Of a stretch of DNA of 64,000 nucleotides, positions 43,402 through 62,213 are shown piece after piece (the first letter of the stretch is position 1; every line of letters begins with the position of its first letter). The stretch is taken from assembly GCA_036652795.1 (NCBI GenBank), contig JAVVVD010000001.1:159363-223362 (forward strand). The letters run 5' to 3'. The notes under the pieces are model-generated. The model saw nothing but the letters and a program-made list of their open reading frames with translations, searched no databases and was not told where the DNA came from. Both the position numbers and the translations under genes were made by a program. The stretch comes from Clostridia bacterium (GTDB taxonomy: Bacteria > Bacillota > Clostridia > Christensenellales > CAG-138).

Positions 43402-43428
43402 TTAGCACTCAAATGAAACGAGTGCTAA
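43402..43428 (+). promoter_or_regulatory. CIRCE operator (HrcA binding site)
   Basis: Perfect consensus TTAGCACTC-N9-GAGTGCTAA. Confidence 0.95.
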
Positions 43429-43468
43429 TAACGTGCCGGAAGGTGTTTAAGGCGAGGAGGTGTGTGTC

Positions 43469-44512: not shown

Positions 44513-44513
44513 T

Positions 44514-45101: not shown

Positions 45102-45132
45102 TAAATAAAACAAAACTGGAGGAAATATAGTT

Positions 45133-46974: not shown

Positions 46975-47065
46975 AAATGCGGTAACGCTAAAGATTTAAT
47001 CACCTCCAGAGCCAGAGCAAATAATGCTTTGGCTCTTGGGGAGTTTGAAAAGGAGCTTTGGGGAA

Positions 47066-48205
47066 TTGGCAAAGACGGATTACTATGAGTTGCTTGGTGT
47101 AAATAAAAATGCCGGCGACGATGAAATAAAGAATGCATTTCGCAAGATTGCCAAGCAATGTCACCCAGATTTACATCCGGGGGATAAGGCTGCTGAAGCC
47201 AAATTCAAGGAAATAAACGAGGCTTATGAGGTGCTTTCAGATTCTCAGAAGCGCGCCAAATACGATCAATTTGGCCATGCGGCCTTTGATCCAAATGCAG
47301 GAGGCGGAAGCTACGGAGCGGGATTTGAGGGCTTTGGAGATATATTCAGCACAGTGTTTGGCGGCGGCTTTGGTGGCTTTAACACAGGTGCGCAGCAGCG
47401 CAACGGCCCTGTAGGCGGAAATGACTTACGCTATAACCTGACGATTACCTTTGAAGAGGCGGCGTTTGGTGTGCGCAAGGAAATACTCGTGCCTCGCGAA
47501 GAAAACTGCACCACATGCGGAGGCAGCGGGGCAAAGACTGGCACGCAGCCCGTACGTTGTTCTGCATGCGGTGGTAGCGGTCAGGTTCGCGTACAGCAGA
47601 ATACAATGTTTGGATCGTTTGCAACGGTACGTACATGCGATGCATGCAATGGCTCGGGTAAGATAATCAAGGAGCCATGTCAGGAATGCCGTGGCAGAGG
47701 GCGTGTGAACAAATCAAACAGGATTGTGGTAAATATCCCTGCCGGAATTGATGATGGTCAATCGCTGAATATGCGCGGTGAGGGTGAAGCTGGTTTGCGC
47801 GGTGGGCCTAACGGAGATCTGTATATCTCAATACGTGTGAAGCCACACAAACTGTTTACACGCAAGGGATTTGATCTGCACATTGAGATGGATATACCTG
47901 TAAGCACAGCTGCGCTTGGCGGCGAAATACAGATTCCTACACTCAATGGCAACGTTAAATATGTTGTGCCAGAAGGCACACAGCCTAATACGGTATTTAG
48001 GTTGCGTGAGCAGGGAGTACAACGGCTAAACTCTACGGCTAAGGGCGATCTGTTAATAAAGGTAAATATACAGATACCTAAAAAACTGACAGATGAGCAA
48101 AGAGAGCTTTTTACGAAGCTTGCGCTTTCACTGGGAGATAAGGTGTCAGAACCAAAACCAGGCAAAAAAGGCATATTCAACAAAGTTAAGGATGCATGGA
48201 GCTGA
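47066..48205 (+). CDS. dnaJ: molecular chaperone DnaJ
   Basis: (M)AKTDYYELLGV J-domain with HPD, a G/F region and four CxxCxGxG zinc motifs. TTG start at 47066 with an AGGAG RBS; the ORF track gives 47024. Confidence 0.94.
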   Translation: MAKTDYYELLGVNKNAGDDEIKNAFRKIAKQCHPDLHPGDKAAEAKFKEINEAYEVLSDSQKRAKYDQFGHAAFDPNAGGGSYGAGFEGFGDIFSTVFGGGFGGFNTGAQQRNGPVGGNDLRYNLTITFEEAAFGVRKEILVPREENCTTCGGSGAKTGTQPVRCSACGGSGQVRVQQNTMFGSFATVRTCDACNGSGKIIKEPCQECRGRGRVNKSNRIVVNIPAGIDDGQSLNMRGEGEAGLRGGPNGDLYISIRVKPHKLFTRKGFDLHIEMDIPVSTAALGGEIQIPTLNGNVKYVVPEGTQPNTVFRLREQGVQRLNSTAKGDLLIKVNIQIPKKLTDEQRELFTKLALSLGDKVSEPKPGKKGIFNKVKDAWS

Positions 48206-48256
48206 TACCTATCGCTTGTTGGATTTCCGCCTGAAATTCAATATATAACAATAATA

Positions 48257-48300
48257 AAAGTCTGATAGCGTTTTATTGATAAATGCCATCAGACTTTTTG
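48257..48300 (+). terminator. rho-independent terminator of the dnaK operon
   Basis: AAAGTCTGATAGC ... GCCATCAGACTTT stem followed by TTTG. Confidence 0.75.
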
Positions 48301-48803
48301 TATGCATATTATGCTATCCCTTTACAACAGCTCTCGCAGCCATTCGAAAGGGTAGAGCAAGTTACAGACAATTCAGTCAACAGCACACCGAAGAAAATCA
48401 AAATATCTACGATACAATTGCCAAACTGAAACTTCGATGAGTACAGTACCGCTTGCAAACTGCCGATGTGCAGGGGGCAACCGCGCCGGGGCGGGAGTAG
48501 CAGTTCAATACAGACACGCAGATACCATCGAGATTGCCATTGAGAATTTTTCCAGTAAAAAGTCTATTAAGTGGAGATTTTGTAGCAGCGTGGCGATGGC
48601 CTGCCGCCGCAACCAGTCAGGGAGAACAGAGAGAAAGAGTAACATTGATAGCCCTTATGTTTTCTTTTGATAAGTAAATGACAACAAGAATAGGTTTAAA
48701 TCCGCGTTAAGCAAAAGTTCATATTTTAGTTATAGACTTACTGGTCTGTTTATGCTAATATAAATAAATTAGACTAAGAAGTCTATTTTAATGGAGGCAT
48801 TCT

Positions 48804-49421
48804 ATGAAACGTGACGAAAAGAATTTAATCAGCAGACGAAAAATTTTAGACAGTGCTTTTGAGGAGTTCGGAACACAGGGCTATGGGCTGAGTTCTGTAA
48901 ACATGATTTGTACGACAGGAAATATTTCCAAAGGGATTCTATACCATTATTTCAAGGATAAAGATGAGTTGTATCTTGTCTGTGTGAAGGAGCTTTTTGA
49001 CAATCTGGCTGAGCATCTGGCGCAGGCACTCGCTGATATGAGCGGCACAAAAACGGCACGGTTGAAACGGTATTTTGATGCAAGGTTTGAATTTTTTCAT
49101 AAGAATCCATTGTATCATAAGCTGTTCTGCGATGTGGTTATTGCTCCTCCTCAGCACTTGGCGGTAAGAATTTTAGAACTGCGGGCGGTATTTGATGGTG
49201 TGAATATTTCGGCACTAACAGAATTGCTGCAAGAAGAAAAACTCCGTCCTGATGTGACTATTGAATCTGCCGTGGAGACTTTTAGACTGTATCAAGATTT
49301 TGTCAACGCTAGGTATCAGATGGAATCCAGCGAAAAAGTAGATTTGGAACAGCATGAGGAAACCTGCAAGCGTTCTCTCGCAATTTTGCTGTATGGCGTT
49401 GTGAAAAGAGAGGTAGATTAG
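48804..49421 (+). CDS. TetR/AcrR family transcriptional regulator
   Basis: N-terminal HTH (RRKILDSAFEEFGTQGYGLSSVNMICTTGNISKGILYHYFKDKDELY). Confidence 0.85.
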   Translation: MKRDEKNLISRRKILDSAFEEFGTQGYGLSSVNMICTTGNISKGILYHYFKDKDELYLVCVKELFDNLAEHLAQALADMSGTKTARLKRYFDARFEFFHKNPLYHKLFCDVVIAPPQHLAVRILELRAVFDGVNISALTELLQEEKLRPDVTIESAVETFRLYQDFVNARYQMESSEKVDLEQHEETCKRSLAILLYGVVKREVD

Positions 49422-49424
49422 AAA

Positions 49425-50801
49425 ATGGGTAAGAAAAAAATAATTGCGCAGCAGTCCCTCCTCTCTGAAGTGAAGCCCGCAAAGGCAATTGTGAATCTGG
49501 CGATACCGGCAACCATCGCCTTGTTGGCAAAAGCTGTTTATAACATTGTTGATACCGCTTACATCGGCCTTTTGGACAGCGAAATAGCGCTGGCATCTGT
49601 TGGCGTGACACTACCGCTGCTGCTGATTTTCGTGTCTATCGAAAATATTTTTGCCGCCGGTGCGGCGGTGCTTGCCGGGCGACAACTGGGCGCGAATAAT
49701 AAAAATGGAGCGAACACCACCATATCCACCATTGTAGCAGCATCTACGCTGATTGGTGGGCTATTATGTGTCGTAGGCATTATATTTATGGAACCGTTAC
49801 TCCGCGCCTTTGGCGCATCAGAAGCCGTAATGCCTATGGCCAAAGATTACGCATTCTGGATGTTCATTGCCGCTATATTTAACCTTCCGGCGCAAAGCAT
49901 GAACTGTGCCGCACGGGCAGAATCCTCGGTGAAAATTTCCTCTATTGCGGTGATCACGGGTGCAGTCCTCAATGTGGTTCTAGATCCGATTTTTATGTTC
50001 GACTGGGGCTTCAATATGGGCGTTGGCGGAGCGTCTCTTGCCACAACCGTGTCGCAGATTGTTACTTTTGCTATCCTCGGTTGGTTCTATTTGAGCGGCA
50101 AGTCCATCATTAAGGTGAGCCTCAAATACATAAAGCCTACACTCAAACTTTTTAAAGATGTTATTATAATCGGCATACCAACCGCCGTAATTCAAATTTG
50201 TCTGGCAGTAGCCACATCACTGACAAATGTCGCCGCCGCGGCACTGACAGACAGCGACCTGATCATTGCTGCCTATGGCGTGGTACAACGATTGGTACTG
50301 GTGGGTTGTTATGTGATTATGGGTTTTATGCAGGGCTATCAGCCGATTGCCTCCTATGCGTTCGGCGCAAAGAACGAGGAGCGGTTCCACGATTCGGCAC
50401 GGTTTTCGTTGAAAGCCGTTTTGCTTCTGTCACTGGCAATAGCCGGGATTTATATTCTGTTCTCACAGCCTCTCATCATGCTTTTTAACCGCAATCCAGC
50501 CATTGTGGAATACGGCTCCAGACTACTGATTTCACAAGTGGCACTATACCCCGCATTTGGGTTGTGCTACATGATGACAATTACTTTTCAGACAATTGGC
50601 GCGTCCAAATATGGGCTGTTTCTCTCAACCATTCGACAGGGACTTTTTTACGTACCCTGTATTCTACTATTGCCCAGCCTTTTAGGCGTTAACGGCATCT
50701 ATTTCGCACAGCCTATTGCGGATGTGATGACAATTATAGTCTGCCTTTGCTCCTACAAGGCGATGAAACGCATTTCAAGTGAAAATATGATGAGAGTGTA
50801 A
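49425..50801 (+). CDS. MATE family efflux transporter
   Basis: 458 aa with about 12 TM helices. The N-terminal segment PATIALLAKAVYNIVDTAYIG is typical of MATE/NorM-like proteins. Adjacent to TetR. Confidence 0.85.
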   Translation: MGKKKIIAQQSLLSEVKPAKAIVNLAIPATIALLAKAVYNIVDTAYIGLLDSEIALASVGVTLPLLLIFVSIENIFAAGAAVLAGRQLGANNKNGANTTISTIVAASTLIGGLLCVVGIIFMEPLLRAFGASEAVMPMAKDYAFWMFIAAIFNLPAQSMNCAARAESSVKISSIAVITGAVLNVVLDPIFMFDWGFNMGVGGASLATTVSQIVTFAILGWFYLSGKSIIKVSLKYIKPTLKLFKDVIIIGIPTAVIQICLAVATSLTNVAAAALTDSDLIIAAYGVVQRLVLVGCYVIMGFMQGYQPIASYAFGAKNEERFHDSARFSLKAVLLLSLAIAGIYILFSQPLIMLFNRNPAIVEYGSRLLISQVALYPAFGLCYMMTITFQTIGASKYGLFLSTIRQGLFYVPCILLLPSLLGVNGIYFAQPIADVMTIIVCLCSYKAMKRISSENMMRV

Positions 50802-50813
50802 GGAGAAATTATC

Positions 50814-51413
50814 GTGGAACATCGCATCATCACCATCAGCCGCCAATACGGTAGCGGTGCCAGACTCATTGGCGCGAGGCTTGCCGAAAAACTAGAAATT
50901 CCCTTTTACGATAAAGAAATTATCGCCTATGCCGCAAAAGAGAGTGATGTTTCCAGTGATTTTTTGGTTCAGGCGGAGCGAGGGGGAGGTAGCCTGTTTA
51001 GAGATTTTTTCATTGGAGCTTCCCCAGAGCTGACCATGGGCGACAAGGCGTATTTGGCACAATTTTCAGCCATCCGTATGCTTGCTGAAAAGGGCCCCTG
51101 CATCATGGTGGGCAGAGGTGCGGGGGCGGCACTGGACGGTATTGTGCCGCTGCTGAATGTATTTATCTACGCTGACCTGGAGCAGCGCAAGCGCCGCGCT
51201 GTGGAGGAATACGGCGACGCCCCAAGCAAAATTGAGTCCTGTATTGTTGCCATAGACAAAAAACGTGCATCTTATTTCAAATTTTATACCGGCCTGGATG
51301 GTAGAAAAATGACGAATTACAATATCTGTGTAGACAGCGGGTTCACCGGTATCGATGGCGCAGTGACGATGATTGAAACGGCATATTTATCGAAAAATTC
51401 CGAACCATCCTGA
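50814..51413 (+). CDS. cytidylate kinase-like family protein
   Basis: ITISRQYGSGARLIGARLAEKLEIPFYDKEII is characteristic of the AAA/cytidylate-kinase-like family. GTG start with an AAGGAG RBS. Confidence 0.7.
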   Translation: MEHRIITISRQYGSGARLIGARLAEKLEIPFYDKEIIAYAAKESDVSSDFLVQAERGGGSLFRDFFIGASPELTMGDKAYLAQFSAIRMLAEKGPCIMVGRGAGAALDGIVPLLNVFIYADLEQRKRRAVEEYGDAPSKIESCIVAIDKKRASYFKFYTGLDGRKMTNYNICVDSGFTGIDGAVTMIETAYLSKNSEPS

Positions 51414-51467
51414 GCCAGACTGTAAGAAAACGCCTGCCCTCCGGCAAGCGTTTTCACACAGTCTGGC
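51414..51467. terminator. long nested hairpin between convergent genes (possible terminator, no clear U-tract)
   Basis: GCCAGACTGT/ACAGTCTGGC outer stem and GAAAACGC/GCGTTTTC inner stem. Confidence 0.45.
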
Positions 51468-51479
51468 TAATAATAGGAA

Positions 51480-51983
51480 TTAACCTATTTCATCACCATT
51501 ACGATCAACAAATATATAACTTTTAGGAGTTAACGCAGTAGAACATACTATTGGCAATTGACCTGCAATTTCCAATTCTTCAACGCTACCATCTTCAAAG
51601 GTTAAAATAATCTTTGCGCATTTATCATTATTTATCACAAATGAATACCCATTCCACGGATATACCGCAATGTCTTGCTCACGCTCATATGCTTTATAGG
51701 TTTTTACAAATCTATATTTATCGCTATGTTCACCAATAATTCCAAATTCAATGGGAAAATAAGAATGCTTTTGATATTCGTTTCCTGTCACGAACCAAAT
51801 CAAACTGCTGCCGTCTACATCAGTAGTGCCAGCAATTTGTACATCCATATTCTCTATATCTGCAAGAGGTATCTCTTCTCTTGCTTTTTCAATCAAACCA
51901 TCGTAGTTGTCTATTGTACTACTGCATCCACTAAGAGCGAATAGTGATAAAACAACCATCATCATATAAATAAACTTTTTCAT
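51480..51983 (-). CDS. hypothetical lipoprotein
   Basis: MKKFIYMMMVVLSLFALSGC lipobox. No recognizable family. Confidence 0.6.
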   Translation of the reverse strand: MKKFIYMMMVVLSLFALSGCSSTIDNYDGLIEKAREEIPLADIENMDVQIAGTTDVDGSSLIWFVTGNEYQKHSYFPIEFGIIGEHSDKYRFVKTYKAYEREQDIAVYPWNGYSFVINNDKCAKIILTFEDGSVEELEIAGQLPIVCSTALTPKSYIFVDRNGDEIG

Positions 51984-51998
51984 ATTTCACCTCGTTTA

Positions 51999-52077
51999 AT
52001 ATAAACAATCTTTATCCGACTATAGCATATTTTCAAGCATAGAAAAAGACCTATCCACCTTGGCGGGAAATAGGTCT
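51999..52077. repeat. left copy of an inverted repeat pair (partner at 59341-59417)
   Basis: 58 nt are identical to the reverse complement of the partner (ATATAAACAATCTTTATCCGACTATAGCATATTTTCAAGCATAGAAAAAGACCTATCC). About 20 further nt match with two 1-nt indels. Weaker similarity continues into the first roughly 8 codons of the flanking genes. Confidence 0.9.
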
Positions 52078-52082
52078 TTTTT
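52044..52082 (-). terminator. hairpin terminator downstream of tRNA-Pro
   Basis: AGACCTAT ... ATAGGTCT stem flanked by A- and T-runs, so it could act in both directions. Confidence 0.7.
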
Positions 52083-52159
52083 TGGTCTGGGTGAGAAGAT
52101 TCGAACTTCCGGCCTCTTGAACCCCATTCAAGCACGCTACCAAACTGCGCCACACCCAG
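52083..52159 (-). tRNA. tRNA-Pro (anticodon GGG), CCA encoded
   Basis: A manual fold of the reverse complement gives a full 77-nt cloverleaf. Acceptor CTGGGTG/CACCCAG, D arm GCGC-AGTTTGGTA-GCGT, anticodon arm CTTGA-AT GGG GT-TCAAG, T arm GGAAG-TTCGAAT-CTTCT, discriminator A and CCA. Confidence 0.9.
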
Positions 52160-52177
52160 AGATCACGAACAGTATGT

Positions 52178-52206
52178 ATATTAACATTGTGAGCAAAATT
52201 TGTCAA
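52178..52206 (-). promoter_or_regulatory. sigma-A type promoter for tRNA-Pro
   Basis: On the minus strand: TTGACA (52206-52201), a 17-nt spacer, then TAATAT (52183-52178), about 18 nt upstream of the tRNA 5' end. Confidence 0.65.
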
Positions 52207-52710
52207 GACATTTTGCCGGCGGCTAAGCTAAAGAAGATTGTAATATATATTGCGAAGGGTGAAGGACGCTTTCTAAGGCTTACATGAACAACAAGGATGG
52301 GATCGCAGAGAGAATCCAGTGCGAGGTAAGCTTTAGTATTATCACTGAGACCGCCAAGCAAGCCGTCAGCAAGACGCAGTACATCGAGGAGATCGCCGAA
52401 TTGAATGGGTCGTGAGCGAGGAAGCCTGATCGCCATCACCCGCCCCGGAGGTTACGAGGGCAGAAAGGATAAGCCATGTTTAAGCCCATCAGATACTATC
52501 GCAACAACGGTACAATCCACATTGGCAGCCAAAATAACAAGCTCACAATCTTCATTCGAGAAAAATCCGCGCGACTCCATCTTGGCCGTAAAACATATCA
52601 TTTCGGCAGGTGGGACTAATCGCATAAGCATACCTTACGAAAGAACGCGAGCTAAGGTGTACTCTACTAGCAAATTGATCTAAAAATATTGAATTGAAAG
52701 GTGAAAAATA

Positions 52711-52923
52711 ATGTTTAAATTAGTCGTGTTATCTGTCAGAGAACAAGAGTATACTCGCAAAGATGGTGGGATAGTACATGGATACTCTGTTTATGTACAA
52801 CTCCAAAATGGTGATGTTGCAAAAGTTTGGTCTAAGAAAATGTACAAGCCAGGCGATAATATTACTTTTGATCTTGGGGTATCTAAGGATGGTACTCTGT
52901 ATGCTAGGCCGGTTGGTATTTAA
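52711..52923 (+). CDS. small beta-rich phage protein, possible ssDNA-binding (gene V-like) protein
   Basis: 70 aa in the first position of the AT-rich element. Size and composition are consistent with a small OB-fold protein. The function is inferred only from context. Confidence 0.4.
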   Translation: MFKLVVLSVREQEYTRKDGGIVHGYSVYVQLQNGDVAKVWSKKMYKPGDNITFDLGVSKDGTLYARPVGI

Positions 52924-52932
52924 TGTTTTATT

Positions 52933-52971
52933 GTGCGTGGGATGTTTTGTATACTACTGCATCCCATGCAC
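52933..52971 (+). promoter_or_regulatory. stem-loop 1 of the phage intergenic region
   Basis: 12-bp stem GTGCGTGGGATG / CATCCCATGCAC with one G-T wobble and a loop of about 15 nt. No U-tract follows. Confidence 0.5.
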
Positions 52972-52974
52972 ATT

Positions 52975-53001
52975 GCCTAAAGGCTAGTATTACCTTTAGG
53001 C
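52975..53001 (+). promoter_or_regulatory. candidate rolling-circle origin: stem-loop presenting the nonanucleotide TAGTATTAC
   Basis: Perfect 9-bp stem GCCTAAAGG / CCTTTAGGC with loop CTAGTATTA. TAGTATTAC occupies 52985-52993. It lies about 120 bp upstream of the Rep start codon. Confidence 0.7.
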
Positions 53002-53006
53002 TACTT

Positions 53007-53107
53007 ATGTGACATGTGACAATTTTTGATTATATCAGATATTACCTTATATTTATTATTGATAAATGATGTGACAAATGTTTTTTGTGATATATTTTGT
53101 GACAAAT
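53007..53107 (+). repeat. iteron-like TGTGAC(A) repeats between the origin hairpin and rep
   Basis: ATGTGAC occurs in tandem at 53007-53013 and 53014-53020. TGTGACAAAT occurs at 53070-53079 and 53098-53107. A degenerate TGTGATA lies at 53086-53092. Confidence 0.6.
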
Positions 53108-53121
53108 ATATGGGGGTCAAA

Positions 53122-54120
53122 ATGGTTAATGATAGTCGTAGTCGTAAATGGCAAATAACTATTAATAATCCATGTGATAAAGGTTTTAGTCATAATAGTA
53201 TAAAAGATATACTTACTACTTTTAAGTCGTTATTGTATTGGTGTATGTGTGATGAAATAGGAACTACTTTTCATACTCATGTGTTTATAGCCTTGGGTGG
53301 TGCTGTGCGATTTTCTACATTGCAAAATAAATTTGATGGTGCGCATTTTGAAATGGCATATGGTACGTGTCAACAAAATCGCGATTATATATGTAAATCA
53401 GGCAAATGGGAAAAAGATCGCAAAAAAGAAACTAACCTTACTGATACTTTCGAAGAATTTGGCGTATTACCTGTTGAGCGTCAAGGTCAGCGAAACGATA
53501 TAATTGATTTATACGATATGATTAAATCTGGTTGTAGTAATTATGAAATCCTTGAAACTAATGCAACTTATATGCTTAATCTTGATAAGGTTGAGCGTAC
53601 ACGTCAAATTATACGTGATGATAAGTATTGCAAGGTATTTCGTCATTTGGAAGTCACTTATATATTTGGTAATGCTGGTTCAGGGAAAACACGTAGTGTA
53701 ATGGATCAATATGGTTATGAAAATGTATATCGTGTTACCGATTACGATCATCCGTTTGATAGTTATAATGGTCAAGATGTAATCGTTTTTGAGGAATTTC
53801 GTAGTAGCATTAAAATTAGCGATATGCTTAACTATCTTGATGGCTATCCGCTTGAATTGCCTTGTCGCTATGCTAATAAGGTGGCATGTTTTACAAAATG
53901 CTATATTATTACCAATATTCCGCTTGAACATCAATATGAGAGTGTACAACAAGATTATAATGAATCGTGGCTTGCTTTTCTTCGCCGTATACATTTCGTG
54001 CATGAATATGGTGTATTTGGTCTTGTTGTATACAAAAGCATAAGCGATTACATGCTTAGATTTGAATCGCCTGAGCAACTTGATATGTCATTGGTTAAGG
54101 TTGGTGATATAAATGTTTGA
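53122..54120 (+). CDS. rep: rolling-circle replication initiator, CRESS-like Rep (HUH endonuclease + SF3 helicase)
   Basis: Motif I WQITINN, HUH-type FHTHVF, motif III DYICKSGK (YxxK), Walker A GNAGSGKT, Walker B VIVFEEF and motif C IITN. Start ATG 53122 follows a GGGGG RBS. The ORF track start 53026 would read through the iterons. Confidence 0.85.
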   Translation: MVNDSRSRKWQITINNPCDKGFSHNSIKDILTTFKSLLYWCMCDEIGTTFHTHVFIALGGAVRFSTLQNKFDGAHFEMAYGTCQQNRDYICKSGKWEKDRKKETNLTDTFEEFGVLPVERQGQRNDIIDLYDMIKSGCSNYEILETNATYMLNLDKVERTRQIIRDDKYCKVFRHLEVTYIFGNAGSGKTRSVMDQYGYENVYRVTDYDHPFDSYNGQDVIVFEEFRSSIKISDMLNYLDGYPLELPCRYANKVACFTKCYIITNIPLEHQYESVQQDYNESWLAFLRRIHFVHEYGVFGLVVYKSISDYMLRFESPEQLDMSLVKVGDINV

Positions 54121-54508
54121 TGTTAGATTAAAATACTATTTATCATTAATTGTAATATGTTTTACTTTATGCTGTTGCTGGTCAGTGTCGTATGCTAACC
54201 AAGGTATTACATCTGATTTAATAACACCTACTGATACGCCCACTGTTACGCCCACTGTTACGCCCACTGTTACACCCACTGTTACACCTACTGATACACC
54301 CACTGGTACACCCACTGGTACACCTACTGATATTAGTCTATTACCAGTTGTCCAAACTCCTGTTATACCTATTAGTACATCTTCAGATATAGATTATACA
54401 TCTTATCTTGATAATCTTTTATCGTATTCTGATGCAATACTATGTGTGTTAATTGCTTTTGGTGTTGTGCTGTTGATATCAATATTTTCAGTGAGGTGGT
54501 TTTTCTGA
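54113..54508 (+). CDS. phage membrane/secreted protein with a (TPTx)9 repeat
   Basis: 131 aa with an N-terminal hydrophobic segment, TPTD/TPTV/TPTG repeats and a C-terminal TM helix. The start overlaps the rep stop. Confidence 0.5.
   Translation: MFDVRLKYYLSLIVICFTLCCCWSVSYANQGITSDLITPTDTPTVTPTVTPTVTPTVTPTDTPTGTPTGTPTDISLLPVVQTPVIPISTSSDIDYTSYLDNLLSYSDAILCVLIAFGVVLLISIFSVRWFF
54224..54331 (+). repeat. nine tandem 12-bp units (ACNCCYACTGNT) encoding TPTx
   Basis: Read directly from the sequence: TPTD TPTV TPTV TPTV TPTV TPTD TPTG TPTG TPTD. Confidence 0.9.
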
Positions 54509-54609
54509 TGTTTGCTATATTTGTTCCTGCTCTTACACTGTTTCTTAGCATTTTTTCTGTACTGTTTATAATAACTTTTTGTATACGATTTTTTTCCTCA
54601 CTTGTTTAA
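54508..54609 (+). CDS. 33-aa hydrophobic protein (pVII/pIX-like minor coat candidate); below the ORF-track length cutoff
   Basis: MFAIFVPALTLFLSIFSVLFIITFCIRFFSSLV. Its ATG overlaps the upstream stop (TGATG). It lies just before the major coat gene, as in Ff phages. Confidence 0.35.
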   Translation: MFAIFVPALTLFLSIFSVLFIITFCIRFFSSLV

Positions 54610-54668
54610 TCTTGGATTAGAACGGACGGCCGCCGTTTTAATAAATAAAATAATAGGAGATTTTTAAC

Positions 54669-54920
54669 ATGACTATTAAAGCTAAGCGTATTCTTTCTGT
54701 TGTATGTGTACTTGTTGTGTCTTTTGCATTTGCTGCCGTTGCGTTCGCTGCTGAGGGCGATGCAGCAACATCTACGCAAGCTATGACTACTGCTTTTACA
54801 ACAATCAAGTCTGATCTCATGTCTGCTGTTGGTGTAATTGCTCCTATTGCTATTGGTATATTTGGTGTTTTTCTGCTTTGGAAGTATGGCAAAAAAATAT
54901 TCAAAACAATTGCTAACTGA
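54669..54920 (+). CDS. inovirus-type major coat protein
   Basis: 83 aa. The signal peptide ends AVAFA|AEGD, and the mature N-terminus AEGD matches that of Ff pVIII. It has an acidic N-terminus, a hydrophobic core (VGVIAPIAIGIFGVFLLW) and a basic C-terminus (KYGKKIFKTIAN). Strong AGGAG RBS. Confidence 0.75.
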   Translation: MTIKAKRILSVVCVLVVSFAFAAVAFAAEGDAATSTQAMTTAFTTIKSDLMSAVGVIAPIAIGIFGVFLLWKYGKKIFKTIAN

Positions 54921-54925
54921 TCTTG

Positions 54926-54960
54926 TGGGCTGCCGCCTTTTTGGCGGTAGCCCAAGTTTT
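54926..54960 (+). terminator. hairpin terminator immediately after the major coat gene
   Basis: TGGGCTGCCGCC-TTTTT-GGCGGTAGCCCA stem followed by AGTTTTT. This is the same placement as the terminator after gene VIII in Ff phages. Confidence 0.7.
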
Positions 54961-54972
54961 TGTGAGGTATTT

Positions 54973-56490
54973 ATGAAAATCACAATCAAAAAAATTGCAT
55001 GCATTGTTCTTGTGTTTTTCTTTTTCTTTGTATATACGTTGCGTTATGCATCACCTGCTTATGCTATTGCGCTCCCTTGGCCATCTGTACTATTTAATTT
55101 ATTTTTCAATTTGGGTGTTAATACTGCTAGTGGTAGATATGATCATGATTTGATTAATATGGAAAACTGGTTTCATGATTTTAAAGATTTTGCATATTCT
55201 GATAAATCTTTTGATGATATGACTCAGCGTGCTATTGATTTATATGGTTCATCATTTGTTACTAAATATGATGCATCCGGTAACCCTTATATAGATGTTG
55301 AGTATGGGCAGTGTAAAAATTTGTGGACTATGTTTAAATCATGGATAGTACCTAAGATATCAGATGGCACTGTTTCATTGCCGTCTAATATTAATTACAA
55401 CGTTGATGGTATGCCGCTTAATAATGCTATACGTATCAAATCATTTGGGTCATTTTCTGGTCGATATCTATCATGTGATGTAGATTATCGATTATATAGA
55501 CTTAATGTATGTAATATTAATAATAAGAATAAGTCTATTGATGCAATTATGGCAATTAAAGTTGATAAAAACATACAATTTACAGCTGATGCTATTGCTA
55601 AACCTGATACAAATCCATCTATACCTGGTAAGCCTGTAATGTTAATGGTATATGATAGTGATTTTCATCGTAATTTTACCAACGGTACTATTAATATCAA
55701 TAATATTGATAATTACTTTACTACATCAGGTTTTGCGATTGCACAGGATATGGGATTATTGATTTATGGTGGCGCTGATTACTGTAGTTATAATCAATAT
55801 AAGGCTTATGGTAGATCTACACAAACTATTGATATATTACGTAATGCACGTTTAAATAGTAATTTTAACGGTATAGAATTTACTAATATTATAAATGAAT
55901 TAGTATGTAGTTTACAACAATATGTATTTTATCCTATTACTGTTGCGACATCCCCAATATCTATACCTTATGATACTGAGGGCGTTGAGGATGTTATAGG
56001 GTCTTGGGGTAATGCTATTGGTGCTGGTGATATTGGTAATGATGTAGTGATATCATTGCCGTTGCCTGCTACTGATGCTGATGTATATACATCATTATTG
56101 GCTGGTATTGATGCATTAACTGCATCTAATGCTCAGCAAGCACGTCTTATAGCATTGTTGCAGCAAGCTATTATTGATGCTCAAACAGCTGCTAAAGTTG
56201 GTGCTAGTGATATTGACATTGATATTGATGATGTTAAGCTGTCAACTGCTATCATGACACGTTTTCCTTTTTGTATACCTTTTGATCTATACAATGCTTT
56301 TGCCGCATTTAGTGGTCTACCACGTAAAGCTCCTAAATGGAGCTTACCATGGTCTGTAAATGGTGTTAATACTTCTATTGATATAGATTTATCTTATTTT
56401 GATAAACTTGCTACTGTTGTTCGATGGGGCGTATTAATTTCATTTAATATTGGCTTGATATTAATTACTCGGAGGTTAATCAAAGCATGA
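54973..56490 (+). CDS. pIII-like minor coat / adsorption protein candidate
   Basis: 505 aa. N-terminal signal MKITIKKIACIVLVFFFFFVYTLRYASPAYA and a C-terminal membrane anchor (VVRWGVLISFNIGLILITRRLIKA). It follows the coat gene. The ORF track start 54838 overlaps the coat gene. Confidence 0.55.
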   Translation: MKITIKKIACIVLVFFFFFVYTLRYASPAYAIALPWPSVLFNLFFNLGVNTASGRYDHDLINMENWFHDFKDFAYSDKSFDDMTQRAIDLYGSSFVTKYDASGNPYIDVEYGQCKNLWTMFKSWIVPKISDGTVSLPSNINYNVDGMPLNNAIRIKSFGSFSGRYLSCDVDYRLYRLNVCNINNKNKSIDAIMAIKVDKNIQFTADAIAKPDTNPSIPGKPVMLMVYDSDFHRNFTNGTININNIDNYFTTSGFAIAQDMGLLIYGGADYCSYNQYKAYGRSTQTIDILRNARLNSNFNGIEFTNIINELVCSLQQYVFYPITVATSPISIPYDTEGVEDVIGSWGNAIGAGDIGNDVVISLPLPATDADVYTSLLAGIDALTASNAQQARLIALLQQAIIDAQTAAKVGASDIDIDIDDVKLSTAIMTRFPFCIPFDLYNAFAAFSGLPRKAPKWSLPWSVNGVNTSIDIDLSYFDKLATVVRWGVLISFNIGLILITRRLIKA

Positions 56491-56753
56491 TTATGTTATT
56501 AGCTGTTGATTTGGGAGGTTTTTTTAATACTATTTGGAGTTCTATAAAGAGTGCTCTTATAAGTGTTGTTAATTTACTACCTGGTTCTCCTTTTCAGGCT
56601 ATTAGTAATGCTCCTGTATCAGAATTTCTAGGTTCGCTTAATTGGATTTTTCCGGTAAGCGAAGTCATTGCGGAACTTCAACTTTGGACTGTGTGTATTG
56701 GTTTATTTTATGTTTATATGGCTATATTGCGTTGGGTTAAAGCTATTGAGTAA
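56487..56753 (+). CDS. pVI-like small membrane protein candidate
   Basis: 88 aa and hydrophobic. The start overlaps the upstream stop (ATGA). It lies between the pIII-like and Zot-like genes. Confidence 0.4.
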   Translation: MIMLLAVDLGGFFNTIWSSIKSALISVVNLLPGSPFQAISNAPVSEFLGSLNWIFPVSEVIAELQLWTVCIGLFYVYMAILRWVKAIE

Positions 56754-56789
56754 TTATTTAATATATTGTGATGTTTGAGGTTTTCTAAT

Positions 56790-57386
56790 ATGATATATTT
56801 GTATAGTGGTACTCCAGGTAGTGGAAAAAGTTTACATGCTACTAAAAAAATTATACAATATTTACGGCTTGGCAGGAGAGTAATTGCAAATTACCCATTG
56901 AATTTAACTGCTTTCCATCTTGGCATTAAAGAACGTAAATTTTTATATAAAGATAATACTGATATAACTCCTGATCTGCTTATAGCTTATTCTCATAAAT
57001 ATTTAAAGCCAGGTCTAGAGGGGCAGTGTGTTTTGGTTTTGGACGAATGTGCAATTATGTTTAATTGTCGCGATATTAACCGAAATGATCGTGCAAAATG
57101 GATTACGTTTTTTCAGCAACATAGAAAATTGGGATATAATGTTATTTTGATATGTCAATTTGATAGAATGTTAGATCGTCAAATACGCTGCTTTATTGAA
57201 TATGAAATTGTTCATAGAAAATTAAATAGTGCTGGTACGGTAGGTTTATTGTTGTCATTGTTTGGCATAAAATTATTTATGGCTATTGAAAAATGGTATG
57301 GCGTGAAAATGCTTACAGGACGCGAAACTTTTACTGTGAGTAAAAAAATATGTAATGCGTACAATAGTTATTCGTTATTTCAATGA
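56790..57386 (+). CDS. Zot/pI-like phage assembly ATPase
   Basis: MIYLYSGTPGSGKSLHA (Walker A at the extreme N-terminus), Walker B CVLVLDEC and a C-terminal TM segment (VGLLLSLFGIKLFMAI). Confidence 0.75.
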   Translation: MIYLYSGTPGSGKSLHATKKIIQYLRLGRRVIANYPLNLTAFHLGIKERKFLYKDNTDITPDLLIAYSHKYLKPGLEGQCVLVLDECAIMFNCRDINRNDRAKWITFFQQHRKLGYNVILICQFDRMLDRQIRCFIEYEIVHRKLNSAGTVGLLLSLFGIKLFMAIEKWYGVKMLTGRETFTVSKKICNAYNSYSLFQ

Positions 57387-57387
57387 T

Positions 57388-57427
57388 AATGTGCAGACGG
57401 GGTTTAGGGGGTCTCCGTCTGCGCATT
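57388..57427. terminator. bidirectional hairpin between the zot-like gene and the convergent DUF2726 gene
   Basis: AATGTGCAGACGG ... CCGTCTGCGCATT 13-bp stem with one wobble, followed by a T-run. Confidence 0.7.
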
Positions 57428-57429
57428 CA

Positions 57430-57993
57430 TTATTTTTTTATTGCTTCTTTTATTGCTTCTTTTATTTGTCTTTCAATATCTTCTTTACTGTAGCTGTAGC
57501 TTGTATGTATTCTTATGATCGATATTTGGGCTGCATTCAATGTGTTGTCGACAAAGTTATCACGTTTTTTACGTTCATCATAATTATGGCTTGCATCGTC
57601 AAGTTCTATCGCGACTAACGGATTTCCGTCTGTGTCTGTTATAAGATAATCAACATGTTTGGATTGTATTTTATTCGTGTATTGTATGCGATTTGATTTA
57701 GCTGTTGTGTCGATAAAATCCCACAACCTCACCTTGGCGAAAAGCAAATAATTATCTGGTATGCATATTTGTAGTATTTTATAAAATTCACTTTCTGCTT
57801 TTGATAATAATATGCGTTTTACATATGGATAATCGTTAATAATCGCATCTTTACACGTTGAACTTTTTATGTTTTTATTTTTTTTAGTTTTAGCTATTAT
57901 AAATCTTATAAGTAAATCAAATGCCATTAGTGCAATTAATATAGCAACTATCGGTTTTATGATATCGATAAAATTTTTCATCATATCATTCAT
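57430..57993 (-). CDS. membrane-anchored DUF2726 (restriction-endonuclease-like fold) protein
   Basis: N-terminal TM helix (IIKPIVAILIALMAFDLLI). Then LSKAESEFYKIL...FAKVRLWDFI...KHVDYLITD...PLVAIELDDASH...RDNFVDNTL, which matches the DUF2726 pattern recalled from memory. Confidence 0.65.
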   Translation of the reverse strand: MNDMMKNFIDIIKPIVAILIALMAFDLLIRFIIAKTKKNKNIKSSTCKDAIINDYPYVKRILLSKAESEFYKILQICIPDNYLLFAKVRLWDFIDTTAKSNRIQYTNKIQSKHVDYLITDTDGNPLVAIELDDASHNYDERKKRDNFVDNTLNAAQISIIRIHTSYSYSKEDIERQIKEAIKEAIKK

Positions 57994-58210
57994 TTAATTC
58001 TCCAATTATTTGATAATTATATTTTCTAAATTATTATGCTATATTATATAGTTTTTATTGAAATAATGCTATATCTAAAAAAACAAATTACTATTTCTTT
58101 CATTGGAAATCCCCCCGCGCAGGGGGGCGATGTTTAAATCATTGCGGGTCACGTCTTTAGAAAGTGACACGCTGATTTTAATATGGGGGGCGTTGAAAGG
58201 AGTAATTATT

Positions 58211-59242
58211 ATGAGCTATCGCCATCTTACCTTTGCAGATCGTAATAAACTAGAAGCATTAACTAAGGCTGGTCATACTCCTAAGTATATAGCTGCATAT
58301 CTGTGTTGTCATGTCTCTACAATTTACCGTGAATTGCGACGTGGAGCATATGATCACATGAATACAGATTTGATTCTTGTTCGATCTTATAGCGCTGACA
58401 TAGCTCAACATGATTATGACTATAAGCAGACTAGCAAAGGTGCTGCATTGAAAATTGGGAATGATTATGGGTTAATGTCATATATAGAGGATATGATATT
58501 ATCTCAGAAATATAGTCCTGATGCTGTAATTGGTAGGATACACCAACAAAGACTGATATTTAATACCGATATATGTACACGTACTTTATATAACTATATT
58601 AATTCTGGTTTGTTTTTAAATTTAACCAATAAAGATTTGCCTATGCGTGGTAAATGTAAAAAATCATATAGACATATACGCTCGGAACAAGTTAAGATGC
58701 CCCTTGCATAATCAATTGAGCAGCGTCCAGATGAAGCAAATTTACGTGATTGGGGTCACTGGGAATTAGATACTGTTGTTGGAAAAGTAGCAAGCAAGTC
58801 ATGTTTGTTAGTACTTACAGAACGTAGCACACGTCATGAGATTGTTCGCAAACTACGTAGTAAAACACAGTCCGAAGTGGTACACGCATTAGATCAACTC
58901 GAACATATATATAAAGATCGTTTCCCTATTATTTTTAAGACTATTACATCAGATAATGGAACTGAATTTTTAAATACTGATTGCATCGAACAATCGTGTA
59001 TTTACAAAAGTGTTGCGCGTACACATTTGTATTACTGCCATCCATATAGTGCATATGAGCGTGGCAGCAATGAAAACGCAAACAAGCTTATACGGCGTCA
59101 TATACCTAAGGGAGATGATATATCAAAATATACTATCAAACAAGTGCAACATATTGAATCGTGGATAAACAATTATCCGCGCAAGATTCTTGGTTATAGA
59201 ACCAGCGCGGAGGTTTTTGCAGAACATTTAAATTCTATATAA
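58211..59242 (+). pseudogene. IS30-family DDE transposase interrupted by a single in-frame TAA (58709-58711)
   Basis: ORFs 58103-58711 and 58805-59242 are in the same frame. N-terminal HTH (STIYRELRRG). The sequence SIEQRPDEANLRDWGHWELDTV continues directly after the stop. D (DTV), D (SDNGTEF) and E (ERGSNENANKLIRR) are all present. Confidence 0.85.
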
Positions 59243-59335
59243 TATTTTTCGCATTTGCTATTGCAATTTACAGGCGGCTAAGCTAAGAGCATAATCCACC
59301 TAAAATCACAAGTTTTATTTCCTCTCATCACCACA

Positions 59336-59374
59336 AAAAGAGACCTATTTCCGCCAAGGGGATAGGTCTTTTTC
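59336..59374 (+). terminator. hairpin terminator (inverted copy of the 52044-52082 hairpin)
   Basis: AGACCTAT ... ATAGGTCT stem followed by TTTTTC. Confidence 0.65.
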
Positions 59375-59417
59375 TATGCTTGAAAATATGCTATAGTCGG
59401 ATAAAGATTGTTTATAT
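59341..59417. repeat. right copy of the inverted repeat pair (partner at 51999-52077)
   Basis: Its reverse complement is near-identical to 51999-52077. Confidence 0.9.
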
Positions 59418-59448
59418 AAATCGTTTATACAATAGGAGGGAATTAAAT

Positions 59449-59700
59449 ATGAAAAAAAGTATTTATATTATTGGAAGTGTTGAGATTGTGGTTGGGTCAT
59501 TGCTATTGTGTATAAGTTCTATTATCAAAGAAACGTTACCTATTTTAGGACGGATTGCATATCAAGCGGCAGCGGCTGGGAGTTATAGCCCCAGTGATTA
59601 CACAACATCATTTTTGTTCGCAAATGTGATTGCTGTGCTGTTAATGGTTGCAGGGATTGTTCAAATCGTATATCAATATAAAAAACTCCATATTCAATAA
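59449..59700 (+). CDS. small hypothetical membrane protein
   Basis: 83 aa from MKKSIYIIGSV with a GGAGGG RBS. Two hydrophobic helices. The ORF track start is 59380. Confidence 0.5.
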   Translation: MKKSIYIIGSVEIVVGSLLLCISSIIKETLPILGRIAYQAAAAGSYSPSDYTTSFLFANVIAVLLMVAGIVQIVYQYKKLHIQ

Positions 59701-59817: not shown

Positions 59818-61143
59818 ATGAGGAGAAAAATAGTGGAACGAAAATCAATTGGAAGTTTTATTGCCGTGCTGCGAAAAGCAAATGGACTCACGCAGAAGGA
59901 TTTGGCGGAGAAATTAAATGTATCGGACAAATCAGTCAGTCGATGGGAACGGGATGACGGTGCGCCGGATTTGTCACTTGTCCCTGTCATTGCCGAAATT
60001 TTTAACGTCACCTGCGACGAATTACTGCGGGGCGAACGCAAGTCCACTGCCAATCAGTCGGAGCAGCAGGGCGAAGATAAACCCACTTTCAAGGCAGAAA
60101 AACAGCGGCAACGGATTTTGTCCGCAAGCTTATCCAAATATCGCAATCGCAGCTTGATTGGAATTGGCTTGGCAATCGTCGGCTTTCTCGCCGCAATGTT
60201 TTGCAACTTTGGCTTTAATCGTGCCTATATCGGCTTCCTTACCGCTGCCCTATTCTACTTGGGGGCAATCATCTGTCAGGCAATATTCATAAACGCTGCA
60301 TTTCTCTCGGTATCGGATGATGAAATGGCGGGAGCCGAAGTGGAGCGATTTCGCCACCGCGTGGTTTCGTTGGGCGAAAAAGCGATTAGCCTATCCCTGG
60401 TTTTGCTGGCGCTGTCCCTGCCGCTGATTGTCTTTCCCACCGACACCTACATGGGTCTGACTGCCGAAAGCTGGCTGATGAGTGCTTTGCCCTTTGGTCT
60501 GATTGGCGTTGTTCTCTGCTGCCTTGCCTGCTATTTTTTGACCGATGCACTGCAAAAAAGAGGGGTCTACACGCTGACTGAAAAAGAAAACGCCGCCTAC
60601 CTCCACAATTTTAAGTTGAAGCGAAGCTGCGCACTGGTTTTATTGGCTGTGCTCTGCCTTACAATTTTTTGCAATGCTGTGGCTATCGGCGGAGGGGATA
60701 TCAGCAAGGTGGCGGAAGGAACCACCTTTGATGATTTTGACGCTTTCAAGGCATATATGGAACAAGACATACCCGCCGAACACAATGGCAAAGGCGGCAT
60801 TGACGGCGCACCCACACAGAGCATACCGGGCAGCGAGCATTACTATGATGAGCAAGGGAATGAAAGTACAAAGGAGCAATCCATGACCCGCACAATTACA
60901 GATAACGCTGGTAATGTAGTTTGCCGGTACATTGATCGCAATCAGTCGGTGTTGAGCCTACGCTACGGACACTTGAATGGAGAACTTCTGCCGATTACCG
61001 TCTTCACCCAGCATGATATCATGGCGGCGCGGCAGACGATTGCCTTTAGAAATGTAATTTTTGGTGGTATCTATATGCTGGAGATAGCTACCGCGGTTTT
61101 TATATATTTTCGAAAACGCAGGCATGAAACGTTGCGCAAGTGA
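59818..61143 (+). CDS. XRE-family HTH regulator fused to a polytopic membrane domain and an extracytoplasmic C-terminal region
   Basis: The HTH_3-type N-terminus is IGSFIAVLRKANGLTQKDLAEKLNVSDKSVSRWERDDGAPDL. It is followed by about five TM helices and one further TM at the C-terminus. An alternative GTG start lies at 59833. Confidence 0.75.
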   Translation: MRRKIVERKSIGSFIAVLRKANGLTQKDLAEKLNVSDKSVSRWERDDGAPDLSLVPVIAEIFNVTCDELLRGERKSTANQSEQQGEDKPTFKAEKQRQRILSASLSKYRNRSLIGIGLAIVGFLAAMFCNFGFNRAYIGFLTAALFYLGAIICQAIFINAAFLSVSDDEMAGAEVERFRHRVVSLGEKAISLSLVLLALSLPLIVFPTDTYMGLTAESWLMSALPFGLIGVVLCCLACYFLTDALQKRGVYTLTEKENAAYLHNFKLKRSCALVLLAVLCLTIFCNAVAIGGGDISKVAEGTTFDDFDAFKAYMEQDIPAEHNGKGGIDGAPTQSIPGSEHYYDEQGNESTKEQSMTRTITDNAGNVVCRYIDRNQSVLSLRYGHLNGELLPITVFTQHDIMAARQTIAFRNVIFGGIYMLEIATAVFIYFRKRRHETLRK

Positions 61144-62039: not shown

Positions 62040-62213
62040 AAATGGAAAATGGATCTTTTTCTATGTTTAAAAATATACATATAAGCAAATAAAAATTATT
62101 TATATTTTCAAATCACTATTTTAAATGATAGTGATTTTTTATTGACATTTTACGGTTTGAATTTTATAATAAAGTTATACAAATCATACATATCATACTT
62201 ACGGAGGCGCGAT

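Follow-up and report, generated by a model that had tools for sequence, protein, structure and literature searches.

The locus described here raises the question of how a filamentous phage whose genome holds no tyrosine or serine integrase came to be integrated in the chromosome of a gut bacterium, and whether the IS30-type transposase gene at its edge is a bystander or the phage's own integration module. The element in question lies in a window of 64,000 nucleotides (nt) taken from contig JAVVVD010000001.1 (positions 159,363 to 223,362) of the metagenome-assembled genome (MAG) GCA_036652795.1, named 'Clostridia bacterium' by the National Center for Biotechnology Information (NCBI); all coordinates below are those of this window. 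An initial annotation, made from the sequence alone, had placed an inovirus-like prophage with Ff-like gene order at 52690-59270 and had listed the IS30-type transposase as its only recombinase. From the present analysis, the element is likely to be a complete inovirus prophage (order Tubulavirales, filamentous single-stranded DNA (ssDNA) phages) of an uncultured gut Clostridia bacterium, which would combine a circovirus-type Rep and origin with IS30-type transposition as one unit. On sequence grounds, the mobile unit is most likely the transposon-like segment 52232-59272, of 7,041 bp, framed by a 14-bp target duplication; the right end proposed initially falls within 2 nt of 59272, and the left end moves, most likely, to 52232. 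The abrupt switch to AT-rich DNA reported at first is real, GC content being 0.334 over 52704-59272, compared to 0.457 in host sequence at 40000-52000 and 0.463 over the first 50 kb of the window.

The evidence that carries this delimitation comes from the two ends. The same 14-mer adjoins the unit on both sides (Table 1), and the chance that the 14-mer fixed at the right junction recurs within 10 kb amounts to ~4e-5. On the right, the sequence that follows the transposase stop codon, ...TTTCGCATTTGCTATTGCAATTTACA, terminates at 59272; its reverse complement, TGTAAATTGCAATAGCAAATGCG, looks like the ends of IS30 (TGTAGATTCAATTGG...), and this right inverted repeat (IRR) resembles the right ends of the related loci L054, L127 and L073 as well as the left inverted repeat (IRL) of a compact insertion sequence (IS) in L119. 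On the left, the IRL of the element and the right end, read as its reverse complement, agree at 17/25 positions (18/30) in exact register, a score reached at only 4/6,980 positions in the element and by random pairs with p ~2e-4. Besides, a Logan contig recovered in two samples (L008) corresponds exactly to 52674-59302 of the window, and its right end at 59302 equals 59272 + 30, as expected for a branch of a k = 31 assembly graph at the IRR tip.

The same layout is found in two inovirus contigs of IMG/VR. In L126, a 15-nt repeat and in-register inverted repeats matching at 18/30 positions (p ~2.5e-4) accompany a pIII-like gene, a Zot-like gene, the same type of Rep and origin and an intact IS30 transposase of 341 amino acids (aa), and in L073 an 18-nt repeat and inverted repeats matching at 19/30 positions (p ~2e-5) accompany coat, pIII-like, pVI-like and Zot genes, a different Rep and, again, an intact transposase. 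Chance direct-repeat pairs in 20 other loci score 3-14/30 only. Taken together, these comparisons of sequence ends support the IS30-bounded architecture in three independent elements, namely the present one, L126 and L073, and since the same end layout recurs in the latter two, the IS30 transposase is most likely the phage's integration module.

The transposase itself scores 224.8 bits against NCBIfam NF033563 (cut-off 80), and the region of D187, D248 and E283 is conserved. Its gene is interrupted by an in-frame TAA (58709-58711), a feature that the initial annotation did not hold, at a codon where intact relatives have P, K, T or R. Since the gene is split identically in the NCBI MAG GCA_036655635.1 and in Logan contigs assembled from two runs, the TAA is no assembly error. 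The IS30 type assigned at first is therefore retained, but the gene, a pseudogene in this copy, can no longer be regarded as a bystander, given the inverted repeats that flank the whole phage. Both a DDE transposase and terminal inverted repeats at the two ends are found, as expected of IS30; instead of a compact unit of 1-1.3 kb with a 2-3 bp duplication, the element measures 7,041 bp with a duplication of 14 bp (15 and 18 bp in the relatives). The element is thus no ordinary IS30, but would act as an IS30 of phage-genome size. In inovirus contigs with three different Rep types, the transposase is located at the same (right) end, and it is 50-60% diverged between phages. Clostridium prophages with a related Rep carry, beside regulatory genes, a tyrosine integrase instead of the IS30 transposase, which makes module swapping visible: the partner of the same Rep is a tyrosine integrase in one lineage and an IS30 transposase in another. 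As a separate observation, the transposase lineage also forms a compact IS of ~1.17 kb in L119 (~4671-5849), the left end of which, TGTAAATTGGCAA, is like the IRR of the prophage; this IS is flanked by an inverted, not a direct, repeat, which is reminiscent of IS1630, known to target hairpins.

The replication module is where the element departs from the Ff-like set described initially, which holds for the assembly genes and not for Rep. From its motifs and matches, Rep is of the circovirus type, an HUH endonuclease joined to a superfamily 3 (SF3) helicase (HUH-S3H), and not of the Ff gpII type. The HUH motifs I (ITINN, residues 12-16), II (HTHVF, 51-55) and III (YICK, 89-92) are followed by the SF3 Walker A (GNAGSGKT, 183-190), Walker B (VIVFEEF, 220-226) and motif C (IITN, 262-265). 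Pfam returns Viral_Rep (PF02407, 4.5e-8) and RNA_helicase (PF00910, 1.8e-5), the best match in the PDB is the full-length Rep of porcine circovirus 2 (7LAR, E = 1.2e-9, residues 8-269, both domains), and the protein shares 59% identity with its counterpart in bajarodino virus 56, within a large family of 5,098 clusters at E < 1e-5. In the literature, one inovirus Rep family with a rolling-circle replication (RCR) endonuclease and an S3H domain, iPF_00203, was reported by Roux et al. 2019 (PMC6813254), and inovirus Reps were described as devoid of helicase by Kazlauskas et al. 2019 (PMC6668415).

Upstream of the Rep gene, a hairpin exposes the nonamer TAGTATTAC in its loop (Table 1). This nonanucleotide is that of circovirus and nanovirus origins. 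The hairpin scores 55 bits against Rfam RF03070, 'ssNA-helicase' (cut-off 41.5), and four copies of the iteron TGTGACA accompany it, two in tandem at 53008-53021 and the two others at 53070-53076 and 53098-53104. Together with hairpins of L001, L053, L054, L055, L126, L133 and L138, the nonamer is found in eight phages, in which it is invariant while the stems differ (GCCTAAAGG, CTGCCGGG, GGTGCGCTAAG, TCATCTAAAGG, GTCGCCTAAG and others), the stems having been compared from per-sequence folds since MAFFT mis-registers them. The hairpin lies ~130-165 nt upstream of Rep in 7/8 of these phages and 1.6 kb upstream in L055, and 2 of those 7 are prophages of the cultured Clostridium beijerinckii and C. 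saccharoperbutylacetonicum. By analogy with circovirus and nanovirus origins, from which the nick position is drawn, the hairpin 52973-53021 would be the plus-strand origin, nicked at TAGTATT/AC between 52991 and 52992. The Rfam 'ssNA-helicase' motif thereby becomes readable as a circovirus-like plus-strand origin of bacterial filamentous phages, and the presence of a related origin and Rep in two cultured, genetically tractable species renders testable both the chemistry of nicking and the connection of bacterial replicons with ssDNA viruses whose circular genome encodes Rep (CRESS-DNA viruses).

The 70-aa protein encoded upstream of the origin had been described as beta-rich and possibly ssDNA-binding. 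Its beta-rich nature is borne out by a single-sequence AlphaFold2 (AF2) model with five strands; a role as ssDNA-binding protein is plausible, although weakly supported, the top Foldseek matches of the model in the PDB being the Ff gene V protein (E ~0.05, TM ~0.5) and the Pf3 single-stranded DNA-binding protein (SSB). The only small homologue, P0141 (38% identity), is encoded directly upstream of a Rep gene of G2P type; otherwise the protein is an orphan in a word-indexed search and has no related open reading frame (ORF) among 2,741 ORFs of related loci. With HMMER, it was also seen to match giant proteins of 1,000-7,000 aa over multiple stretches (up to 30). The protein may be built from a beta-hairpin repeat unit instead of a classical OB fold.

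By contrast with Rep, the morphogenesis module is, from its homologies, that of an inovirus and Ff-like in assembly. The ORFs listed initially are all present on the plus strand in the order given, and the assignment to an inovirus-like prophage of a monoderm is upheld by Zot, coat and gene order, homologous to those of the Clostridium phage CAK1, bajarodino virus 56 and >50 IMG/VR contigs. Searches with profile models for the Zot/pI and coat families, suggested as a check, were run with positive outcome. The Zot/pI protein matches Pfam PF05707 (E = 5e-19; 69 bits, cut-off 20.3), PHROG 197 (Zot-like toxin, 1.2e-21) and PHROG 1675 (protein I of M13, 8.6e-21), and is 42-50% identical, by tblastn, to the CAK1 assembly protein and to the Zot of bajarodino and Dulem viruses. 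The coat protein matches PHROG 1646, 'major coat protein' (1.4e-5), and can be aligned with 51 homologous ORFs in related inovirus contigs; the family shares with M13 pVIII a pattern made of a signal peptide ending in A-x-A, an acidic N-terminus, a hydrophobic core and a basic tail of the GxKxFKK type. The mature N-terminus AEGD, pointed out at first for its identity with that of Ff pVIII, is indeed present, but since AEG(D/S) and ADGD recur among coat homologues it is a trait of the family and no coincidence with Ff alone.

The block of coat, pIII-like, pVI-like and Zot genes is common to 56 IMG/VR contigs, and the same order is found in CAK1 and bajarodino virus 56, the pVI-like gene of related loci always lying between the pIII-like gene and Zot. 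In the 505-aa pIII-like protein, the C-terminal ~170 residues are homologous to CAK1_08 (a putative receptor-binding protein), to a 482-aa ORF of L001 and to 56 IMG/VR loci, and the N-terminal part gave no family match in Pfam and PHROG scans. Small ORFs occupy in L001 and CAK1 the position equivalent to that of the 33-aa peptide, and the gene of the 131-aa protein displays a 12-nt periodic repeat in its DNA, the family matches of this protein being confined to its low-complexity repeat. The hairpin terminator noted directly after the coat gene is confirmed as the sole terminator-like site in 52100-59500; shuffled sequences hold a mean of 4.2 such sites, so that the count is not enriched and it is the position that is notable. 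As already stated in the initial annotation, no secretin family is found among the ORFs of the element scanned with Pfam, and no tyrosine or serine integrase is found in the element.

Table 1. Features of the element and of its borders, in window coordinates
Feature	Coordinates	Strand	Remarks
Left direct repeat, 14 bp	52218-52231	.	GGCGGCTAAGCTAA; read as target-site duplication
IRL	52232-52256	+	AGAAGATTGTAATATATATTGCGAA; begins on the base next to the left direct repeat
Leader segment	52257-52703	+	GC-richer, 46% over 52232-52703
70-aa all-beta protein, candidate ssDNA-binding	52711-52923	+	single-sequence AF2 model, pLDDT 84.9, five strands
Plus-strand origin (predicted)	52973-53021	+	hairpin, stem GCCTAAAGG/CCTTTAGGC, nonamer TAGTATTAC (52985-52993) in loop; ~130 nt upstream of Rep
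Rep, 332 aa	53122-54120	+	HUH endonuclease fused to SF3 helicase
131-aa protein	54113-54508	+	N-terminal hydrophobic/signal segment, nine TPTx units, C-terminal membrane segment
33-aa fully hydrophobic peptide	54508-54609	+	pVII/pIX position; overlaps at its start with the stop of the preceding gene
Major coat protein precursor, 83 aa	54669-54920	+	signal peptide ending AFA, mature N-terminus AEGD, hydrophobic core, basic C-terminus KYGKKIFKTIAN
Intrinsic-terminator-like hairpin	54926-54954	+	12 pairs, 9 of them G-C, then T-rich tail; directly 3' of the coat gene
505-aa pIII-like protein	54973-56490	+	signal peptide, C-terminal anchor at residues 479-499; hydrophobic segments at both termini
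88-aa pVI-like minor coat protein	56487-56753	+	33% identity to CAK1_09 (E = 1e-14), 42% to a 79-aa ORF of L001
Zot/pI-family assembly ATPase, 198 aa	56790-57386	+	Walker A GTPGSGKS, Walker B VLVLDEC, one membrane segment (147-167)
DUF2726 protein, 187 aa	57430-57993	minus	N-terminal membrane segment and restriction-endonuclease-like domain; Pfam DUF2726 3.3e-32
IS30-family DDE transposase gene	58211-59242	+	one in-frame TAA, 58709-58711, codon 167
IRR	59248-59272	minus	reverse complement TGTAAATTGCAATAGCAAATGCGAA; tip at 59272
Right directly repeated copy, 14 bp	59273-59286	.	GGCGGCTAAGCTAA; directly after the IRR tip

While the architecture is read from the sequence, the mechanism of integration is proposed by analogy with IS30-type elements. 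The double-stranded replicative form of the phage would be pasted into the chromosome by its own IS30-family transposase, a circular phage with abutting ends would act as an IS30 circle intermediate, and the same transposase would regenerate circles from the prophage while the donor copy is kept, as in copy-out/paste-in elements. On the circle, the TGTGACA iterons would serve as binding sites for Rep, which would cut the plus strand within the hairpin loop, at TAGTATT/AC, and then drive rolling-circle synthesis, with the 70-aa beta protein probably coating the displaced strand. Finally, the coat, pVII/IX-like, pIII-like and pVI-like proteins and a Zot/pI with one membrane span would extrude the filament through a single membrane, for which reason no secretin would be needed, and the terminator after the coat gene would keep the coat mRNA abundant, as in Ff.

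Since its transposase carries a nonsense codon, the present copy is probably immobile unless it receives transposase in trans, and a solitary prophage of this kind would have no obvious route for the release of circles; tandem copies, as in C. saccharoperbutylacetonicum, would allow production in the style of CTXphi without excision. In the chromosome of this species (CP016087.1, ~663.9-691.4 kb, L138/L139), an inovirus-like prophage with a related Rep and TAGTATTAC origin was observed as a perfect tandem that repeats every 6,446 bp, with 100% identity over at least 5.3 kb, beside a tyrosine integrase, an arrangement that resembles the tandem arrays letting CTXphi make ssDNA without excision.

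In the light of these data, a broader reading is favoured here with modest confidence, namely that this lineage of filamentous phages of gut Clostridia consists of true transposable phages, whose genome would be organised as an IS30-type transposon (inverted repeats at the ends, duplications of 14-18 bp) and would shuttle between chromosome and circle by copy-out/paste-in, with the circovirus-type Rep and the TAGTATTAC origin amplifying the circle and packaging it as ssDNA. If true, a DDE transposase and an HUH-S3H rolling-circle replicon would be paired in one virus. It would also explain the elements with 'IS30 at one edge plus 15-bp repeats' of a 2026 preprint. There, a partial IS30 is reported at one edge of an element that also has 15-bp repeats and carries an inovirus gp2-like gene, and the authors leave the mobilisation of this element unexplained (10.64898/2026.07.08.737213).

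Several observations weigh against the delimitation and the mechanism proposed here. The left end of L008 (52674) lies at the GC switch and not near 52232, and a second, gapped IRL-like stretch is present at 52655-52698, with an ungapped 18/30 match at 52681; because of this second stretch and of the start of L008, the true left end may lie elsewhere or the population may be heterogeneous, and a variant phage devoid of the leader segment may coexist in the samples of L008. The inverted repeats are imperfect (17/25), the 15- and 18-nt repeats seen in L126 and L073 could also represent att sites that were trimmed, or a spacer from a circular form, and the structural matches of the 70-aa protein reach only E ~0.05, its sequence matches being mostly giant repeat proteins. 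The 14-bp duplication is also far from the 2-3 bp that are typical of IS30. The only known precedent for a long duplication is IS1630, which duplicates long targets, as cited through PMC7648426. Finally, no empty site, circular junction or read-level evidence was obtained. The comparison with related genomes advocated initially was carried out and yielded the same occupied site in every available MAG of the organism and no empty one: exact-protein look-ups of both flanking genes returned only occupied sites or contig breaks, a scan of genome contigs with the neighbouring cytidylate-kinase-like protein gave no relative above 44% identity, and exact-pattern scans of metagenomes of the Joint Genome Institute (JGI) for the reconstructed empty site and for the left flank gave no match.

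These observations leave room for other explanations. A rather unlikely one is that the element is a decayed remnant, fixed in the species, non-functional as a phage and kept as cargo. It would account for the fact that every available MAG of the organism, GCA_036655635.1 among them, has a 100% identical prophage at this site, for the nonsense codon of the transposase, for the lack of a repressor or regulator gene such as relatives have, and for the fact that no episomal evidence was found. Nevertheless, all replication and morphogenesis ORFs are intact and of full length in comparison with free circular relatives, the TAA of the transposase being the sole visible defect, and composition does not drift towards that of the host. 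In addition, a branch point of the assembly graph coincides exactly with the IRR tip in two samples, suggesting that the site is heterogeneous.

It is improbable that the transposase belongs to an independent IS30 inserted beside or at the end of a prophage which itself integrated otherwise, through XerCD at a dif-like site or by an integrase since lost, the repeats and the similarity of the ends being coincidental. According to Roux et al. 2019 (PMC6813254), sequence alone does not suffice to tell transposases of inovirus genomes from selfish insertions; the present transposase lineage is also found in non-inovirus viral contigs and as the compact IS of L119, and the proposed IRL coincides neither with the left border of the AT-rich block (~52700) nor with the position at which the Logan contig begins (52674). 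Against this reading, the stretch of the window that separates the DUF2726 gene from the start of the transposase gene contains no inverted-repeat partner, and in 12/13 related loci none is found within 450 nt of the transposase gene. Two candidates for an IRL were discarded, one adjoining the transposase gene, which amounted to an 11-nt match only, and one at 57337, which would have delimited a 1.9-kb IS including the DUF2726 gene but falls within the coding sequence of Zot, lacks a flanking repeat and does not score above background. Direct repeats and in-register inverted repeats flank instead the whole unit, in three independent elements with p <=2.5e-4 each, and a transposase that is as diverged as stated above, yet always at the same end, is a misfit with recent random insertions. 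As to the XerCD route, dif-like ends were also dropped: compared by eye with the dif of Bacillus subtilis, from which the host dif may differ, the ends share an AT-rich centre only, with arms matching at 1/9 and 3/9 positions. Since GC skew rises monotonically across the window, no replication terminus is nearby, and from the same two comparisons the element is probably not of the XerCD/dif-integrating CTXphi type, which has 28-bp dif-like junctions at the replication terminus.

A plasmid-like or satellite element that combines a circovirus-type Rep with a borrowed Zot gene, and is no autonomous filamentous phage, is very improbable: the Rep family is very common, bacterial HUH-S3H Reps have been linked to plasmids (PMC6668415) and a Zot-bearing element was read as a satellite in the 2026 preprint (10.64898/2026.07.08.737213), but the full coat, pIII-like, pVI-like, pVII/IX-like and Zot set is here in canonical order, and a size of ~6.6-7 kb with coding on a single strand matches the complete inovirus genomes PQ006124 and CAK1.

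Around and within the unit, a few other features deserve mention. The insertion point lies 12 nt beyond the -35 box of a promoter-like site of tRNA-Pro (52083-52159, minus strand); the tRNA gene was considered as an att site and discarded, since the insertion is upstream of its promoter and the tRNA is intact. The leader segment may be variable cargo, as compared with the left end of L008. It contains small ORFs at 52284-52415 and 52476-52619 and a conserved 40-nt motif at 52439-52478, just before the ATG at 52476; the segment 52160-52710 gave no Rfam, Pfam or PHROG match, and a look-up of the 92-aa ORF of the leader returned nothing. The motif (CCGCCCCGGAGGTTACGAGGGCAGAAAGGA, ~40 nt) is followed by an ATG 6-8 nt downstream and recurs with 93-100% identity in Flavonifractor phage Castelnaud, in two 'Bacteriophage sp.' records and in a pig-gut Microviridae genome, and motifs of this type are also located at 7998-8027 and 8222-8262 of L129. 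It has no match among Rfam families and, from its sequence conservation, may be a conserved phage 5' leader. The DUF2726 gene, also absent from the initial annotation, is treated as an accessory (cargo) gene. Its homologues are found in the inovirus contigs L101 (76-507) and L106 (200-568) and in the Vibrio filamentous phage Vaf1 (OP297622, 7852-8202), so that DUF2726 is a recurrent accessory gene among filamentous phages of Clostridia and of Vibrio alike.

Outside the unit, a 94-nt inverted repeat (51993-52086 / 59330-59423) was rejected as phage ends, since it is a terminator/promoter repeat of the host that is present a third time at 62054. The copies of this 50-94 nt repeat (51993-52086, minus strand; 59330-59423 and 62054-62106, plus strand) contain a terminator-like hairpin, a promoter-like stretch and the 5' end of a gene, and precede three small genes, the products of which are a lipoprotein, a membrane protein of 83 aa and a MazE-like protein; the prophage is flanked by two of the copies by chance, and these cause assembly breaks. 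Further downstream, ~65 substitutions distinguish the window from two other MAGs of the same organism within ~480 nt (59997-60480), compared to <15 differing sites in the surrounding 17 kb. This patch sits inside the gene of an HTH_3/membrane protein (59833-61143), and its local density of substitutions points to a recombination tract or a diversifying patch.

With regard to known systems, the element is ordinary as a prophage call, since Clostridia inoviruses, secretin-less assembly and HUH-S3H Reps have already been catalogued. It has what is expected of an inovirus, with a pI/Zot ATPase, a small major coat protein and a conserved gene order in a genome of 5-10 kb. The view that filamentous phages of Clostridia-type hosts are few applies to isolates and not to predictions: thousands of inoviruses were predicted by Roux et al. 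2019, who reported transposases in inovirus genomes and families of monoderm hosts without secretins (PMC6813254), and Enterocloster inovirus prophages, flanked by direct repeats, were shown to be secreted (PMC10061712). Neither work describes the nonamer origin or inverted repeats around a whole phage, and the Enterocloster paper mentions neither integrase nor transposase. No description of the IS30-bounded integration architecture was found in the searchable literature. The present locus offers a coordinate-level example of a filamentous phage with IS30 ends, replicated in two public contigs, and turns into a testable mechanism the ambiguity of the 2019 survey, in which transposases are left as 'integration or selfish element' (PMC6813254).

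Among individual phages, CAK1 of C. beijerinckii (OX639564) is like the element in its monoderm Clostridia host, its size (~6.5 kb), its order of coat, pIII-like, pVI-like and pI genes and its lack of secretin, with a Zot 42% identical and homologous pVI-like and pIII C-terminal proteins; it differs in that its Rep is G2P-like, in that it encodes a transcriptional regulator and, separately, an FtsK-like second assembly protein, and in having neither IS30 transposase nor TAGTATTAC origin. Bajarodino virus 56 (PQ006124) and the related bajarodino and Dulem viruses, from faecal metagenomes, have the same Rep family (59%) and a Zot 46% identical, and bajarodino virus 56 shares with the element the TAGTATTAC hairpin ~130 nt upstream of Rep and the gene order from the small pre-origin protein to Zot. 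Unlike the element, these viruses are free circular genomes of 5.7 kb with a helix-turn-helix (HTH) regulator on the opposite strand, and have no transposase, DUF2726 gene or TPT-repeat protein. With neither a gpII-type Rep nor a match to the pIV secretin, the element is not a member of the Ff group.

Circovirus and CRESS-DNA replication modules (porcine circovirus 2 Rep, 7LAR) resemble that of the element by the HUH motifs I-III and SF3 helicase in one protein, the stem-loop with NAGTATTAC and the adjacent iterons; the similarity is distant (E = 1e-9), and, unlike CRESS-DNA viruses with their eukaryotic or archaeal hosts, the element has no jelly-roll capsid, a bacterial host of the Clostridia and the virion genes of an inovirus. 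It is therefore not a CRESS-DNA virus, only the replication module being alike. With the IS30 family, and IS1630 of Mycoplasma fermentans in particular, the element shares an NCBIfam equivalog transposase, inverted repeats starting with TGTA..ATT and a long duplication (for IS1630, via PMC7648426), but it measures 7 kb with ~10 passenger genes, compared to 1-1.3 kb, and has 14-18 bp duplications without obvious palindrome. Finally, the plectroviruses of Spiroplasma (Vespertiliovirus SpV1), which carry IS30 or IS3 transposases, are likewise filamentous phages of wall-less or monoderm hosts with a genomic IS30-family DDE transposase and insertion by transposition (PMC6668415, PMC13595969). They are reported to have no Rep and to replicate by transposition, whereas the element also has a complete rolling-circle module, Rep and origin both being present, so that its transposase would serve only for integration and circle formation.

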